From: Escherichia coli
GTDB lineage: Bacteria; Pseudomonadota; Gammaproteobacteria; Enterobacterales; Enterobacteriaceae
Assembly: GCF_050320075.1 (NCBI RefSeq)
Contig: NZ_CP190018.1
Reading direction: 5' to 3' (one strand)
DNA: 64,000 nucleotides
Position 1 is the first letter of the stretch, and every line of letters begins with the position of its first letter. Below the pieces are notes generated by a model. It was given only the letters and a program-made list of their open reading frames with translations. It was not told the DNA's origin and searched no databases. The position numbers and the translations under genes were made by a program. Shown here piece by piece: positions 10,784 to 63,218 of this stretch.

Positions 10784-10956
10784 AAAGTTCTTTGACGTTG
10801 CATTGCTGGCGTAAATGTCAGCAATGCAGCATTTCCTCACGATTCTCCTTTGACGATCGCACTTTTTGCTCGTTATGATGGCGTCGCTAGCCTCAGTAAA
10901 TCCTTACTCCGGCGGTGCGCAACCCGTGCGCGTGAACCACTATCTGAATGCTCATC

Positions 10957-31222: not shown

Positions 31223-31338
31223 ATATTCATCCCTGAAATGTATTAATGAAATAAACGATATTTTACGCGCAATAAATGTTTGGCGCATTAGTTGTTTGAG
31301 CGAAAAATATCTGGAAAGCAGATCACAGTAAATAAAAA

Positions 31339-31365
31339 AACCTGCTGGTGAGGCAGGTTCTTTTA
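31339..31365 (-). terminator. Hairpin flanked by A7 (left) and T4 (right); reads as strong intrinsic terminator for minus-strand transcripts
   Basis: AAAAAAACCTGCTGGTGAGGCAGGTTCTTTT; rc gives stem followed by U7. Confidence 0.5.
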
Positions 31366-31445
31366 TTTACTATTTTCAGGCCCAACACCGCAGCCTGTGC
31401 AACATCGTGTTCCAACGAACGAATTATAACCATCGGTGGACCCCG

Positions 31446-39627: not shown

Positions 39628-42600
39628 TTAATCAAAAAGTGATTCGATGTCGTTAATGAGTTCGCTGGCGGTGATGGCATCAAGCGCGGAGAACGTGAGC
39701 GAGGGCTGTGTACTGTAGCGTTCCCCTGGTGAAGTGATTTTTACGCTTTCAACAGGTAGCAGGTCGCTATACCCCGTTTCGCCATAAATTAATGAAAAAT
39801 GTTCTGTTTCAAGTTCGAGAGCGCCATAAGGGGTAGATTTGCGCATCGCATAGACGCTGCCGCTTTCTTCCAGACGTTGCCAGCCTCGACGTTCCAGCCC
39901 GACAATGCGCCCGGCCTGGCAAAGACGTCCTTGCCAGCGTATCAATTCATGGGTATCACGTTCATTATCAGTAAGGTGGTAATAACCACGATCGAGTTGG
40001 CGAAAGGGAGGAAGCTTTTCGTAATCAGCATAAATTTGCCCAAATGCAGTGGCGGATTCAGGAGATATTTCCAGCACATGCGGTATACCGATGTTTCCTG
40101 CTGGCAGCGTGAATAACTCATCCTGCGCATCGCTGTAAGTGCTGTCTTCTGCGACCCGGAAGCAGGCGATCAGCGTGTTTTCCTCAGTATATACCCCCCA
40201 TAACACCCGTCGGGTTAAGTGACGTACCAGCGGATGCTCCACCAGAAACAGGCGGAACTGCTCTGCCGTCCAGCGTCTGCGCTGGCACATATCCTGCTCC
40301 AGACGATCAATCTGCTGGCTGGCAATGGCGTGCACATCTTTCTTCAATTGTTTGAAGAGGTTAACGGAGTCAGTTGCCAGTGTTTGATCATCGCTCTGAT
40401 TTGGTTTGGGTAAATCTTTCAGGACTTTGCCGTTTGCATCGTGCACTACAGGTTTTAAGGTTTCGTCAAAACCAACGGTGAATTGACGTGGGCCGAAATC
40501 CAGTATCAGCGAGCCACTGTTATCAAGCCCTAAATCTGGAGCCAGGCGGTCTTCCAGTTCAGCCATAGTCAGCCCACGGTTTTCAGCAACTATGTTGATT
40601 TTCTCGCGGGCATGTTCCTGTAATGCTTTGAATTTAATTTTTCGCGCGATGCCATTAAGCAGCATTAGCGCAACATCGCTGCCAATATCAGCTAATACAT
40701 CCAGCCCGTAAACCGCGCGTTTATGCTGGGATTCACCCGGCCAGGCACGGATAAGCGGGGTTAATTTACGTGCGGTGTCGTCATTGCCTAAAATCCCAAG
40801 CGAAGTAAATGCCCAGTTTTCTTTTGCGGGTGCGCCAGCTTCTGTCCATGCCGTGTAGAGATCCCAGCCAAAGTCAGCCAGTGATTCGTGGGTGAAGGTC
40901 TCTTTGATGGTCGCCAGCCCAGCGTAGGAGGTAATGTCGCGTGGAAAGCTCAACATTGTGCCCAGGTGGCGCATAGCGTCATCTGGCAGAGGCAGGTTGT
41001 TACTTTTAAGCCGTGGTCTGCGCCATAAGGTGAACTGATAAAAGCCGGGCAGTGGGGCGATTTTAGCGGGATATTCTTCCAGCGGATCGCTATCGAACAA
41101 TGTTGCCAGCGCAGCTAAAACATCAGGTTGGTTGTATCTCCGGCCGATTTCTTCAATCGTTTCTCGCTGGTTTAATTTCACTAGCAGGCGGAATGCCTGG
41201 CGGGCATATTCCCGATTTTGGCACGGTTTGCCCAGCGCCAAAGGCAGTAGCCCGGCGGCGGCATGGCGCGGGTTATTTGCCAGCCAATTAATGGCATCCT
41301 TGTAAGCCATTTTTTTCTGTAACCGCTGCGCCATTGGTAAGGCTAGTTCACTGGCCCCAATAAAGAGGGTGAATATCCACAGTCGTTGATGATCTCGTTG
41401 CAAGCAGGTCATAAACGCAGGAATGGCCGTACTACCAAAAACTGCCAGAATCTCTTTCTCACCTGAATATCGCTCCTCAATGATTATTTGGTTGAGAAAT
41501 GAAATCGCCTGTTGTCCCGGTAAGTAACAAAGCGCAGATAGATTCCAGCTTTTGTTGGCATTGTTGTGATATTTCGCAAACTCAGCTTTTAGTGCTGGAA
41601 AATCAAAGCGCAACAAGGCATCAACAGCGCTTTGCGGTATATATTTTTTTTCATGTAAGTCATCTTCGCAATGCAGCCATTCATTAAAACCTAATTGCCA
41701 AAGGATTTGTTGTTCTGGTGTAAAAGGAATGAAAGATGTCTCCCAGCTTTCTTTTTCAATTAGTGGCAGGTCGGTAAATAAGGTTTGCTGTGATGACTGA
41801 TATTGCGCGATTTCACTGAATCTGGATATGTCAGTATGACTGATTAACTCTGTAATTCCTGGCGTGATGTCAGTGACTGCAGGGATGGGAAGCACCGGTA
41901 AATCAAATACGGGTATTACATTCGTTTTCTTATTTATTACCCACGGTGGAGCGACAAACAGCTCCGGCAACATATCCGCAGTGGCGTATTCACATTCTTC
42001 AGCGACTAACTGAGTACGACATTCAGATAAGATGCCTGCCGCTTTAGCATTAACCCAGGGAATGACGTCAGTGACTAAATCTGGCGTGGCGGTAATCAGT
42101 TTGACAAGCGCTTTACGCCACTGTGCATCTTCATGTATTGCCAGTAAAGTTGCATAAGCGGCAAGAGCCGCAGCGGGATGTTTTTGACAGGCTTTGCTTA
42201 AGTATTCCAGGTGCTTTTTCTTGCCAATTACACCGAGGATCAGAATTTGAATCGCATCCGGGTGATTCGTTTTCCATAGCCATTTGACAAGATCTTCAGT
42301 CTCGCTGATGCGCTCGAAGAGATAAGTGGGATTGTCAGAATGCTCTTCCGTAAACTCAAGAAGTATCCGGCTTACACCGCGCACCCCATTATTTGCCAGC
42401 AACATTGCCAGATAAGCGCGAAAATCATGATACAACGGTGGGAAGTCGTATTTTTCTGCTGTAGTCAGAGCGGCGTCATCGGTTACCACCAGTCTTAACC
42501 AGGTCATCGCCGGAACGTTTTGATCTGCATAACGTAGCGCCATAGCATTGGCAATATCCGGGCGTTCAGGGAGCAGTAACGCCGCAAAAGGTTGCCGTGC

Positions 42601-43425
42601 TGGGGATAGCGAGGGAATAGCAGCGAGAACTTTATCTACACAGCGTTGCCACTCATCTTCTGAAGCGAGTGAAAGATGATGACATAGACGTTGATGCCAG
42701 TTCGGTAGTGATTCTGCTTTGAGATCAGGGGGAATAATGGTGGTGACGTCGGCTTTTACTGGTTTATATTTGAGTTGAAGAGCGAGAAGGGCGATTTCAA
42801 CGGTAGTTTCCAGACCACAGCGAATGACTAAGTCATCGACCAGTTCATCTGTAGAGTAAGAGTTCCATAAATTCCAGAGCAATGCCGCATCAGATTGTAT
42901 ACTTCCTGTTTGTTGATTATTCAGAATTCGCCTTTGTAACTCGGCAAACGCCAGCTGCCAGTTTTCAGGATAAGAGCGGTAATTATTGTCGGGGTCATAT
43001 GCCCTGGTGTTATTCGCGATGCGCTTCCATATTTGGCCATCTTTGTACAGATAATTGATCTCTCTGGGGCGAGAGCGATGAGGAAAAGCAAATCGATTAA
43101 TATCGCCAGTTACCGGAATGACTGCATCATCAGCCACCCATGGGCGTTTGTTTTTACTCTCAGGGGAGGTTTCAACTTCAGGAGTGGCTTTGGTGATGGG
43201 GGGGATATGCACGTTTGCTAAAGCATTTTCCACATAGCCTTTTTTCGTTTTCTCTGCGATCAGCTTAAGCTCCGCTTTTGCCGCTGCCGCAGCATCCGCA
43301 AAACTTTTTACCTGGTTTTGCCCTTTGGTGCCAACTTTTCCCCAACAGATATGCAACTCGTTTCCCTGTTGCTCCACCGCCCAGAATTTATGTGATTTTT
43401 CGTCCTGAAAGATAAAGTGCCTCAT
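39628..43425 (-). CDS. Giant WGR-domain MolR/YehH-family protein, paralogue B (1265 aa)
   Basis: N-terminal WGR domain MRHFIFQDEKSHKFWAVEQQGNELHICWGKVGTKGQNQVKSFADAAAAAKAELKLIAEKTKKGY; C-terminal blocks LDFGPRQFTVGFDETLKPVV, RRVLWGVY, IYADYEKLPPFRQL, ELINDIESLFD. Confidence 0.85.
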   Translation of the reverse strand: MRHFIFQDEKSHKFWAVEQQGNELHICWGKVGTKGQNQVKSFADAAAAAKAELKLIAEKTKKGYVENALANVHIPPITKATPEVETSPESKNKRPWVADDAVIPVTGDINRFAFPHRSRPREINYLYKDGQIWKRIANNTRAYDPDNNYRSYPENWQLAFAELQRRILNNQQTGSIQSDAALLWNLWNSYSTDELVDDLVIRCGLETTVEIALLALQLKYKPVKADVTTIIPPDLKAESLPNWHQRLCHHLSLASEDEWQRCVDKVLAAIPSLSPARQPFAALLLPERPDIANAMALRYADQNVPAMTWLRLVVTDDAALTTAEKYDFPPLYHDFRAYLAMLLANNGVRGVSRILLEFTEEHSDNPTYLFERISETEDLVKWLWKTNHPDAIQILILGVIGKKKHLEYLSKACQKHPAAALAAYATLLAIHEDAQWRKALVKLITATPDLVTDVIPWVNAKAAGILSECRTQLVAEECEYATADMLPELFVAPPWVINKKTNVIPVFDLPVLPIPAVTDITPGITELISHTDISRFSEIAQYQSSQQTLFTDLPLIEKESWETSFIPFTPEQQILWQLGFNEWLHCEDDLHEKKYIPQSAVDALLRFDFPALKAEFAKYHNNANKSWNLSALCYLPGQQAISFLNQIIIEERYSGEKEILAVFGSTAIPAFMTCLQRDHQRLWIFTLFIGASELALPMAQRLQKKMAYKDAINWLANNPRHAAAGLLPLALGKPCQNREYARQAFRLLVKLNQRETIEEIGRRYNQPDVLAALATLFDSDPLEEYPAKIAPLPGFYQFTLWRRPRLKSNNLPLPDDAMRHLGTMLSFPRDITSYAGLATIKETFTHESLADFGWDLYTAWTEAGAPAKENWAFTSLGILGNDDTARKLTPLIRAWPGESQHKRAVYGLDVLADIGSDVALMLLNGIARKIKFKALQEHAREKINIVAENRGLTMAELEDRLAPDLGLDNSGSLILDFGPRQFTVGFDETLKPVVHDANGKVLKDLPKPNQSDDQTLATDSVNLFKQLKKDVHAIASQQIDRLEQDMCQRRRWTAEQFRLFLVEHPLVRHLTRRVLWGVYTEENTLIACFRVAEDSTYSDAQDELFTLPAGNIGIPHVLEISPESATAFGQIYADYEKLPPFRQLDRGYYHLTDNERDTHELIRWQGRLCQAGRIVGLERRGWQRLEESGSVYAMRKSTPYGALELETEHFSLIYGETGYSDLLPVESVKITSPGERYSTQPSLTFSALDAITASELINDIESLFD

Positions 43426-52577: not shown

Positions 52578-52606
52578 TTCCCCCTCATGATGAGGGGGCT
52601 TTTTTT
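52578..52606. terminator. Bidirectional terminator between convergent yehA and rcnB
   Basis: CCCCCTCATGATGAGGGGG hairpin followed by TTTTTTT; T-run overlaps rcnB stop. Confidence 0.6.
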
Positions 52607-52943
52607 AGCGATGATAAAAAATCTCACCGTCGTAGGCTTTAATGATTTTACCGTCGGTGTCGCTGATCAACACGTACGCGCCACCCATATAGGTCCAGTG
52701 CGTCCCGGCATCAGGCGCGGGCAGGTTACGTAACTGCCACTGCTTAATGTTGTACTCATCGGTGCGGTACATCTCTGGGACGGTATCGCCTGGTTTGAAA
52801 TGCTTAAAGTCAGCAATGAAACTGCTTAACTCATACTTAGAAATTCCCGAGGTATTGGTCGAACCCGCGGTGGCTGGTGCGGCCCAGGCGGCACTGGTAA
52901 CCAGCAAAAGCGCACCCAGCAACATCTTATTTTTAATGGTCAT
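52605..52943 (-). CDS. rcnB: Periplasmic Ni/Co homeostasis protein RcnB (YohN)
   Basis: Internal ATG 52941-52943 gives 112-aa MTIKNKMLLGALLLVTSAAWA signal peptide + mature domain. Confidence 0.9.
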   Translation of the reverse strand: MTIKNKMLLGALLLVTSAAWAAPATAGSTNTSGISKYELSSFIADFKHFKPGDTVPEMYRTDEYNIKQWQLRNLPAPDAGTHWTYMGGAYVLISDTDGKIIKAYDGEIFYHR

Positions 52944-53161: not shown

Positions 53162-53986
53162 TTATCGCATTATGCCCATGAAGCCATGTACGCCCATATA
53201 CACACCAACTAAGCCAATCAACAGACTGGAAAAATAGGGGGCGCGTTTAGCGAGAGTGTTAAATCCGCTCCAGCGTTTTGCGACCTGCTGAACGCTGATT
53301 GCTGCGCCAACGCCTACGGTGACAAGCGTTAACGCCAGGCCAATGCTGAAACTGACGACCAGTGTTGCGCCCAGTGTCAGGGCTTTCAACTGAATGCATA
53401 TCAACAGCACGGTAATTGCTGCCGGGCAGGGGATAAGGCCACCGGTTAAGCCAAATAGCAAAATTTGCCAGTTGGTGACCTCTCTACCATCAAAGCGTCG
53501 TTTAATGTCATTGGCATGGGCTCGTGCATGGGCATCCTGATACTCGCCATGTTCGTGATGGTGATGATGTCCATGGTCGTGGTGATCTTCGTGATCGTGG
53601 TGATGATGCTCATGATCATGCTCGTGCATATTCTCCAGCCAGTTTCGTTCGCCGCGCCAGGTACGCCAGAACATCCAGAACGCGGTGCCAATAATGATCA
53701 CTGCGGAAATCAACTGGAGCCACGGTTCTGCTGATTGAGCAGTAAAGCGCTTGCTGATCACCATCCCGCCAAAGGCAATCAACCAGACCACTGCGGTATG
53801 CGAAATGGTTGCTGCCAGTCCGAGCATCACCGCCTGTTTAATGGTGCCTTTGATGGCGATGATAAACGCCGCCATCATCGTTTTTGAGTGCCCTGGTTCC
53901 AGGCCATGAAGCGCACCAAGTAAGATGGCGCTGGGGATGAAGAACCAGGCGTTTCCTTGCTGAAGAAGAGTTGTAAATTCGGTCAT
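53162..53986 (-). CDS. rcnA: Nickel/cobalt efflux transporter RcnA
   Basis: 274-aa membrane protein with His-rich loop HEHDHEHHHHDHEDHHDHGHHHHHEH. Confidence 0.9.
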   Translation of the reverse strand: MTEFTTLLQQGNAWFFIPSAILLGALHGLEPGHSKTMMAAFIIAIKGTIKQAVMLGLAATISHTAVVWLIAFGGMVISKRFTAQSAEPWLQLISAVIIIGTAFWMFWRTWRGERNWLENMHEHDHEHHHHDHEDHHDHGHHHHHEHGEYQDAHARAHANDIKRRFDGREVTNWQILLFGLTGGLIPCPAAITVLLICIQLKALTLGATLVVSFSIGLALTLVTVGVGAAISVQQVAKRWSGFNTLAKRAPYFSSLLIGLVGVYMGVHGFMGIMR

Positions 53987-54023
53987 GATAATAATTCTTA
54001 GTATTAATTTGGCAATCTGATTC

Positions 54024-54038
54024 TACTCCCCCCCAGTA
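54024..54038. promoter_or_regulatory. RcnR operator site 1 (TACT-C7-AGTA, i.e. TACT-G7-AGTA on opposite strand)
   Basis: Matches known RcnR TACT-G6-N-AGTA recognition pattern in rcnA-rcnR divergent intergenic region. Confidence 0.6.
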
Positions 54039-54043
54039 CCTGA

Positions 54044-54058
54044 TACTACCCCCCAGTA
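54044..54058. promoter_or_regulatory. RcnR operator site 2 (TACT-A-C6-AGTA)
   Basis: Second copy 5 bp from site 1. Confidence 0.6.
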
Positions 54059-54106
54059 GATTAATAGTGCTATGATTTTTCATATTCTTATTAACCAGGT
54101 GTTGCC

Positions 54107-54379
54107 ATGTCTCATACCATCCGTGATAAACAGAAACTGAAAGCGCGTGCCAGTAAGATTCAGGGCCAGGTCGTGGCGCTCAAGAAAATGCTCGACGAGC
54201 CGCACGAATGTGCTGCAGTTTTACAACAGATTGCTGCTATCCGTGGCGCGGTAAACGGTCTGATGCGGGAAGTGATTAAAGGTCATCTGACGGAACACAT
54301 CGTTCACCAGGGGGATGAGCTAAAACGTGAAGAAGATCTGGATGTCGTTCTGAAGGTGCTGGATTCTTATATCAAATAA
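54107..54379 (+). CDS. rcnR: Ni/Co-responsive repressor RcnR (CsoR/RcnR family)
   Basis: 90-aa [48 protein letters not shown]... Confidence 0.9.
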
Positions 54380-54469: not shown

Positions 54470-54600
54470 ATCAAACGACTCGGGGTGCCCTTCTGCGTGA
54501 AGGCTGAGAAATACCCGTATCACCTGATCTGGATAATGCCAGCGTAGGGAAGTCACGGACCACCAGGTCATTGCTTCTTCACGTTATGGCAGGAGCAAAC
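54470..54600 (+). promoter_or_regulatory. TPP (thiamine pyrophosphate) riboswitch, thiM leader
   Basis: Conserved THI-box elements GGGGTGCCC...CTGAGA...ACCTGATCTGGATAATGCCAGCGTAGGGAA immediately upstream of thiM RBS. Confidence 0.8.
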
Positions 54601-62505: not shown

Positions 62506-63218
62506 GCACAGAAAACCCCCAGCTAGGCTGGGGGTTCCGGAAAGCTTTCAGCTTTGAGCCAGTTATTCAAACCCCTTTTGATTTGTTAAAACACCTTGCG
62601 GTCTGGCAACTGCAAGTGTCAAACAAGAAATCAAAAGGGGGTCCCAATGGGGGACGAAAAGAGCTTAGCGCACACCCGCTGGAACTGTAAATATCACATA
62701 GTTTTTGCGCCGAAATACCGAAGACTGGCGTTTTACGGAGAGAAGCGTAGGGCGATAGGCAGTATTTTGAGAAAGCTGTGTGAGTGGAAAAGCGTACGGA
62801 TTCTGGAAGCAGAGTGCCGCGCAGATCATATCCATATGCTTGTGGAAATCCCACCCAAAATGAGCGTATCCGGCTTTATGGGATATCTGAAAGGGAAAAG
62901 CAGTCTGATGCTTTACGAGCAGTTTGGGGATTTGAAATTCAAATACAGAAACAGGGAGTTCTGGTGCCGAGGGTACTATGTCGATACGGTGGGTAAGAAC
63001 ACGGCGAAGATACAGGACTACATAAAGCACCAGCTTGAAGAGGATAAAATGGGGGAGCAGTTATCGATTCCATATCCGGGCAGCCCGTTTACGGGCCGTA
63101 AGTAACGAAGTTGAATGCAAATGTCAGATCGTATGCGCCTGTTAGGGCGCGGCTGGTAACAGAGCCTTACAGGCGCATTTGAAAAACCTCCGGCTATGCC
63201 GGAGGATATTTATTGCCT
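62506..63218 (+). mobile_element. IS200-like (IS200/IS605 family) insertion element; ends approximate
   Basis: Single Y1 transposase gene flanked by subterminal hairpins CCCCCAGC-TAG-GCTGGGGG (62516-62534) and CCTCCGGC-TAT-GCCGGAGG (63187-63205); second stem-loop 62571-62642 sequesters tnpA RBS. Confidence 0.7.
62647..63105 (+). CDS. tnpA: IS200 transposase TnpA (HUH Y1 transposase)
   Basis: 152-aa MGDEKSLAHTRWNCKYHIVFAPKYRRLAFYGEKRRAIGSILRKLCEWKSVRILEAECRADHIHMLVEIPP... with HuH motif HIHML and catalytic Tyr region. Confidence 0.9.
   Translation: MGDEKSLAHTRWNCKYHIVFAPKYRRLAFYGEKRRAIGSILRKLCEWKSVRILEAECRADHIHMLVEIPPKMSVSGFMGYLKGKSSLMLYEQFGDLKFKYRNREFWCRGYYVDTVGKNTAKIQDYIKHQLEEDKMGEQLSIPYPGSPFTGRK

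Follow-up and report, generated by a model that had tools for sequence, protein, structure and literature searches.

Two TACT/AGTA inverted repeats, each enclosing a homopolymeric G/C tract, lie between the divergent genes rcnA and rcnR of Escherichia coli. Does the length of these tracts tune nickel and cobalt efflux, or is it held constant as part of a repressor-binding site? We analyzed the element in a 64,000-nucleotide stretch of E. coli DNA, referred to here as the window, and compared it with the corresponding loci of other strains and species.

A tandem RcnR operator between rcnA and rcnR

The 35-bp element, as read from the sequence, has the following parts:

54024-54038: RcnR site 1 (rcnA-proximal), with TACT at 54024-54027, C7 at 54028-54034, and AGTA at 54035-54038
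54039-54043: spacer between the RcnR sites, CCTGA, 5 bp
54044-54058: RcnR site 2 (rcnR-proximal), with TACT at 54044-54047, A at 54048, C6 at 54049-54054, and AGTA at 54055-54058

On the minus strand, site 1 reads TACT-G7-AGTA and site 2 reads TACT-G6-T-AGTA. In a repeat search, the two sites were paired as a direct repeat of 15 nt, spaced 20 nt. This start-to-start period of 20 bp corresponds to about two helical turns, which places both RcnR sites on the same face of the helix.

The shortness of the motif is the sole point in favor of regarding the two palindromes as a functionless chance occurrence. The pattern TACTN7AGTA has only two matches in the 64-kb window, both of them in the operator, compared with 0.17 expected from shuffles. 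The matches adjoin one another at 20 bp within the cognate intergenic region, and the sites are conserved from Escherichia to Vibrio while their flanks diverge. Chance is refuted by these observations, and we assign it no probability. A search for the stricter pattern TACT-V-C6-AGTA with up to two mismatches gave no further match within the 64-kb window. Runs of six C or G residues are scarce in the window (11 found versus 21.5 expected), and three of the 11 fall inside the 35-bp operator. A G-quadruplex or i-motif at the operator was rejected, because two G/C runs are too few for an intramolecular structure.

Three genes are relevant to the function of the element:

53162-53986, minus strand: rcnA, Ni/Co efflux permease with a His-rich loop, the target of repression (NF007454)
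54107-54379, plus strand: rcnR, CsoR/RcnR-family repressor that responds to Ni(II)/Co(II) and regulates its own expression through the same operator (NF011613)
52605-52943, minus strand: rcnB, periplasmic accessory subunit, downstream of rcnA and in the same direction (RefSeq syntenic loci)

The 274-aa ORF of rcnA scored 560 bits against the NCBIfam nickel/cobalt efflux transporter model NF007454 (cutoff, 195), and the 90-aa ORF of rcnR scored 197 bits against the NCBIfam RcnR equivalog NF011613 (cutoff, 138). The coordinates of rcnB were carried over from the RefSeq annotation of syntenic loci, and the ORF is present in the window. The divergent gap between rcnA and rcnR measures 120 bp and contains the operator. 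Farther out, yehA and rcnB lie on one side, and a TPP riboswitch, thiM, and thiD lie on the other. The rcn region was matched in 5,363 of 5,426 complete E. coli genomes, with rcnA/rcnR as the annotation there, and the gene arrangement around the operator is the E. coli chromosomal arrangement. The RcnR protein is WP_000019944.1 in all E. coli loci read except that of FG92-1.

The operator is base-for-base identical to that of E. coli K-12 MG1655, in which its position and flanking genes are also the same as here. From the start of rcnA to the first rcnR codons, K-12 and the window differ at three positions in 147 bp, all of which lie outside the operator. Passages of three papers (PMC7055735, PMC3902906, PMC7105576), all of which cite Iwig and Chivers (2009) and Blaha et al. 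(2011; Biochimie 93:434), give the RcnR recognition motif as TACT-G6-N-AGTA, with two copies in the intergenic region of rcnA and rcnR. According to the same passages, each site binds apo-RcnR 1:1, the TACT/AGTA half-sites are contacted through the minor groove, and the unbroken G-tract has A-form DNA character, a shape that RcnR reads. The type-1 operators of the CsoR/RcnR (DUF156) family are described as having one G/C tract of 3 to 8 bp and AT-rich inverted repeats 6 to 9 bp apart, sometimes in tandem (PMC3902906). The element studied here resembles them in its unbroken G/C tract, its TACT/AGTA dyad, its 7-bp spacing, and its tandem arrangement. CsoR proper differs in using type-2 sites with two shorter tracts. 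Tract length differs between members of the type-1 family, whereas it is almost fixed at 7 within RcnR orthologues.

Two exact copies of the motif, an rcnA/rcnR intergenic location, identity with K-12, and conservation between diverging flanks are all found at this locus. The element is thus the already known RcnR tandem operator, and the finding adds nothing new as an identification. No observation speaks against this assignment. The sequence-only reading had reached the same assignment. It described two TACT-G/C-tract-AGTA sites 5 bp apart, with coordinates and composition that are exact; its tract of seven residues in site 1 and of six plus one A in site 2 is confirmed by the sequence; the operator that it named has the sequence found in K-12 MG1655; and the divergent rcnA-rcnR setting that it gave is supported by NCBIfam matches above the curated cutoffs for both genes and by the RefSeq annotation of matching genomes.

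Half-site spacing is conserved across species

For a comparison between species, we took one genome per species with RcnR, which yielded 80 loci from Enterobacterales plus Vibrio. The genera sampled include Escherichia, Citrobacter, Salmonella, Raoultella, Kosakonia, Rahnella, Hafnia, Erwinia, Edwardsiella, and Morganella, and the sample extends to Vibrio europaeus. Site 1 is present in 79 of the 80 loci and has a C7 tract in 73 of these 79; the exceptions are singletons. A second site follows 4 to 6 nt further on in 69 of the 80 loci, and its tract reads ACCCCCC in 59 of the 69. The exact canonical geometry (C7, 5-bp spacer, 7-nt site 2) is found in 64 of the 80 species loci, and the canonical operator was also found in 108 of 120 metagenome loci. 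Across the 80 loci, column-wise information is near maximal over both sites and near zero in most flanking columns. Because the flanks diverge while both sites stay near maximal, the pattern is a classic phylogenetic footprint. The final A of the CCTGA spacer is conserved across species, and the other positions vary. This comparison indicates that strong purifying selection maintains the 7-nt distance between the half-sites.

A single intact RcnR site is found in Morganella, Edwardsiella anguillarum, Erwinia psidii, and one Enterobacter; to judge by these loci, one RcnR site can evidently suffice. Morganella carries a degenerate remnant, ACTACCTCTTTGTA, at the expected place of site 2. In Salmonella enterica subsp. 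arizonae, site 2 is TACT-A-C5-AGTA, with 6-nt spacing, in two independent sequences (the type strain and a metagenome contig). Site 1 of these S. arizonae-type loci has C6T in one sequence and C5T in the other. A shorter spacing is thus carried by a natural lineage.

The operator overlaps putative promoter elements of both genes

Conservation across species also pointed to candidate promoter elements on either side of the operator:

54020-54025, minus strand: putative -10 hexamer of rcnA, TAGAAT (cross-species conservation)
54069-54077, plus strand: putative extended -10 of the rcnR promoter, TGcTATGAT (conservation)

The ATTC directly to the left of site 1 is conserved, and together with the TA of TACT it forms TAGAAT on the minus strand. 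The hexamer therefore shares 2 bp with the outer TACT half-site of site 1. Its T, A, and final T, the most diagnostic -10 positions, are invariant across the species columns, and equivalent hexamers occupy the same place in Morganella (TATACT) and Vibrio (TATGAT). Since this putative -10 overlaps site 1, the C-tract of site 1 would lie between it and any -35 element. On the rcnR side, Salmonella, Citrobacter, Hafnia, Vibrio, and others have TGCTATAAT-like sequences at a fixed distance of 10 nt past site 2. The corresponding -35 position, at about 54049-54054, would fall within the C-tract of site 2. Thus, site 1 appears to overlap the rcnA -10 and site 2 to cover the rcnR -35 region, a predicted layout that fits the published operator shared by both genes.

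A scan for consensus promoters returned a single candidate, TTGCCA-16-TATTAT (minus strand, 54015..53988). We rejected it as the rcnA promoter because only 2 nt separate the end of its -10 from the rcnA ATG, which would put the start of transcription inside the gene, and because its -35 is not conserved across species. The conserved TAGAAT at 54025..54020 is favored as the probable rcnA -10.

Tract length varies among E. coli genomes

Tract lengths were counted as exact matches in 5,345 complete E. coli genomes, using queries of 62 to 64 nt with SNP-free flanks and one tract altered in each. Earlier queries of 73 to 80 nt had been confounded by SNP haplotypes in the flanks (CATGTTCTT on the right; CTTATTC, GGTAAT, and GACAAT on the left). 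The counts come from a band of at least 99% identity that may hold up to about nine partial alignments; they are therefore upper bounds and are given as ranges:

Canonical C7 / AC6: 4,816 of 5,345 genomes (~90%), exact 63-mer
Site 1 = C8: about 99-108 of 5,345 genomes
Site 1 = C6: about 137-146 of 5,345 genomes
Site 2 = AC5: 19 full-length (28 in band) of 5,345 genomes
Site 2 = AC7: 29 of 5,345 genomes

The remaining ~245 genomes include substitution haplotypes, such as a change of the spacer from CCTGA to CATGA. Length variants make up 4.4 to 4.75% at site 1 versus 0.9% at site 2 (odds ratio, 5.1; p = 1e-31). Site 1 is therefore about five times more variable than site 2, as expected if the indel rate rises with run length. 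A literature search for reports of rcn tract-length polymorphism found none.

The sequence-only reading had suggested comparing tract lengths across strains and had called the homopolymers slippage-prone. When the comparison was run, the lengths were not invariant, with ~4.5% variants at site 1 and 0.9% at site 2. The description as slippage-prone is also borne out: alleles one base longer or shorter occur on several RcnA backgrounds, and at least two of them, C8 in O121 and C6 in O111, are inherited within lineages.

Two strains differ from the canonical operator in other ways. In E. coli HCM-25C-3, the outer half-site of site 2 reads GGTA instead of AGTA (a substitution equivalent to 54055 in the window), the only half-site mutation among the E. 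coli loci read. In E. coli 97_3250 (NZ_CP074773.1), a clean 20-bp deletion fuses both sites into a single TACT-C7-AGTA, and rcnA and rcnR are intact despite the deletion. The deletion probably arose by recombination or slippage between the 15-nt direct repeats.

Lineage-shared alleles are not assembly errors

If all of the +/-1 variants were homopolymer errors of long-read assemblies, the operator would be effectively invariant in E. coli. We gauged the background of such errors with a control, the G7 tract at 43198-43204, the sole 7-nt G/C run of the window outside the operator, which lies in a 1,265-aa DUF4132 ORF (39628-43425, minus strand). The control tract was called G6, a frameshift, in four of 315 matching assemblies (1.3%), and one of these calls, in CFSAN061763, differs from the sister isolate CFSAN061768. 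This background is not significantly below the 2.7% frequency of C6 at site 1 (p = 0.15), in a comparison that polymorphic flanks limited to 315 genomes and that is underpowered (p = 0.15-0.19). A frog isolate series (ET210, ET450, ET625, ET5, and ET791) recurs among the AC5 calls at site 2, and in ET791 both tracts are shortened at once. In addition, the K-12 derivative ER2683 has C6, whereas K-12 has C7. The control background and the ET series together suggest that a substantial share of the sporadic variants may be assembly artifacts.

Assembly error nevertheless fails as a complete explanation, since it is refuted by alleles shared within lineages. Among the genomes with C8 are many of O121:H19 that come from different laboratories; O121 strain RM8352 has C8, as do two independent NCBI draft assemblies that carry its RcnA allele (three of three sequences). 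Many O111 genomes are on the C6 list, including O111:H- 11128 (NC_013364.1, GCF_000010765.1), which has intact rcnA and rcnR and an intergenic gap of 119 nt. Variants also appear in metagenome contigs, which are mostly short-read: of 65 loci of the E. coli type, three have C6 or C8, one of which is covered 16.7x, and this frequency is similar to that in complete genomes. It is accordingly barely credible that every variant is an error, and some are real and inherited, namely C8 in O121:H19 and C6 in O111.

The RcnA alleles of the variant strains bear on how often these changes arose. C8 occurs with WP_000134636.1, WP_021539233.1, and WP_000134592.1, and C6 occurs with WP_000134647.1, WP_000134636.1, and WP_001400613.1. 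Because each variant is found on at least three RcnA alleles, these length changes are recurrent. Every variant strain read has WP_000019944.1 as its RcnR, and the repressor thus carries no compensating change. The O111-type RcnA allele failed as a lineage marker; it is widespread, and 10 of the 10 loci that it returned were canonical.

Tract length as a possible determinant of efflux

The polymorphism raises the possibility, put forward in the sequence-only reading, that tract length tunes Ni/Co efflux. A change of one base would turn one half-site about 34 degrees against the other, and at site 1 it would also shift the predicted spacer of the rcnA promoter from 17 to 16 or 18. Given this rotation and the altered promoter spacing, a regulatory effect is plausible. 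The site-1 tract is a recurrent +/-1 slippage hotspot, with C8 fixed in STEC O121:H19 and C6 in STEC O111. It is conceivable, but doubtful, that these alleles and the 97_3250 fusion, by altering RcnR half-site spacing and the putative rcnA promoter spacer while RcnR is unchanged, would produce heritable differences in basal and induced Ni/Co efflux between pathogenic lineages. Likewise, we consider it possible though unlikely that the fixed O121 and O111 alleles would measurably alter regulation.

A stronger version of the idea is that the operator is a contingency or tuning locus, in which slippage at site 1, and less so at site 2, would create differences in basal Ni/Co efflux that are heritable, perhaps reversible, and exposed to selection. 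Such a role would be consistent with the polymorphism among the 5,345 E. coli genomes, the similar variant frequency in the mostly short-read metagenome contigs (3/65), the occurrence of each variant on at least three RcnA backgrounds, and the fixation of alleles in O121:H19 and O111, where rcnA and rcnR are both intact and the RcnR protein has not changed. The position of the tract between the putative rcnA -10 and the upstream promoter region also has the geometry of known phase-variable promoters. The Neisseria porA and opc promoters and the Bordetella fim promoter are phase variable and have homopolymeric G/C tracts in the spacer between -35 and -10. The rcn tract is like these in being a G/C homopolymer near a predicted -10, with +/-1 alleles in natural strains. 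It differs from them in being short (7 nt), conserved in length in about 80 species, and represented by variants that are rare and apparently stable within lineages, and its primary role is as part of a repressor-binding site.

These differences speak against a contingency locus. Length does differ among strains, with part of the variation possibly reflecting assembly error, but it is not variable between related species: C7 is found in 73 of 79 loci, with singletons as the exceptions, and AC6 in 59 of 69. Within E. coli, both lengths are kept in ~95% of the genomes. Within a lineage, the variants seem to be retained rather than to switch; the three O121-allele sequences read are uniformly C8. 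Runs of 6 to 7 nt are shorter than typical G/C contingency tracts, and, given the 1.3% background at the control G7, a large part of the sporadic variation may stem from errors of assembly. The near-invariant 7-nt spacing over about 80 species, the low frequency of variants, their apparent stability within lineages, and the shortness of the tracts all count against a dedicated role in tuning or phase variation, which we regard as quite improbable. The constancy of the 7-nt spacing across species argues for constraint rather than a switch. The constraint is not absolute, given the lineage-fixed C8 and C6 alleles and the 6-nt site 2 of S. arizonae.

The explanation that almost certainly accounts best for the data as a whole is a shared rcnA(B)/rcnR operator whose spacing is constrained and whose +/-1 alleles are by-products of slippage rather than a dedicated switch. 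In this model, the 35-bp element serves as the operator common to the divergent rcnA(B) and rcnR promoters. It comprises two type-1 sites, each with inverted TACT/AGTA half-sites 7 nt apart around an unbroken G/C tract. As in the published model, one apo-RcnR tetramer would bind per site, contacting TACT/AGTA and reading the A-form-like shape of the G/C tract. With site 1 over the putative rcnA -10 and site 2 over the putative rcnR -35, bound RcnR would occlude both promoters. Binding of Ni(II) or Co(II) would release RcnR, again following the published model, and RcnAB efflux and rcnR would be derepressed. The C7 and C6 runs are ordinary slippage hotspots at which +/-1 alleles arise infrequently, and the longer run yields more of them than the shorter. 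Certain alleles have become fixed in lineages; they are mutational by-products, with a possible, unproven regulatory effect.

The RcnR operator itself is textbook-level knowledge of nickel and cobalt homeostasis. The modest addition made here is a population survey, which reveals near-invariant 7-nt spacing in Enterobacterales together with rare natural alleles that differ by one base. At least two length alleles are fixed in major Shiga-toxin-producing lineages with an intact, unchanged repressor. They are ready-made natural mutants for testing how strict RcnR is about half-site spacing and G-tract shape, and they could explain differences between strains in Ni/Co tolerance or in the behavior of RcnR-based biosensors.

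Other features of the locus and the window

The window and K-12 share an annotated rcnA length of 825 nt, but the gene is annotated with 846 nt in O157:H7 F8798 and with 789 nt in HCM-25C-3. This suggests a length polymorphism in rcnA, perhaps in the repeat-like loop rich in His, Asp, and Glu (~53480-53590). In E. coli ET979 (NZ_CP100876.1), an IS1A element lies directly upstream of the rcnA start codon, at the equivalent of ~53987 in the window, and the operator and rcnR no longer adjoin rcnA.

A 10-nt direct repeat, ATTCTTAGTA / ATTCTTATTA, is found at 53994-54003 and 54084-54093. The two copies are 90 nt apart and sit roughly symmetrically on either side of the operator. The left copy overlaps the ribosome-binding region of rcnA and is moderately conserved across species. 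Presumably, both copies lie within the flanking DNA that is reportedly wrapped by RcnR.

An Rfam scan found no structured-RNA family overlapping the operator. The nearest match is the TPP riboswitch (RF00059, 71.8 bits) at 54471-54567 on the plus strand, upstream of thiM and between rcnR and thiMD. Elsewhere in the window, three further Rfam matches scored above the gathering score:

62514-62637, plus strand: STnc490, Hfq-binding sRNA
31334-31409, minus strand: OrzO-P antitoxin RNA
10872-10952, plus strand: Peptidase-S11 cis-regulatory RNA
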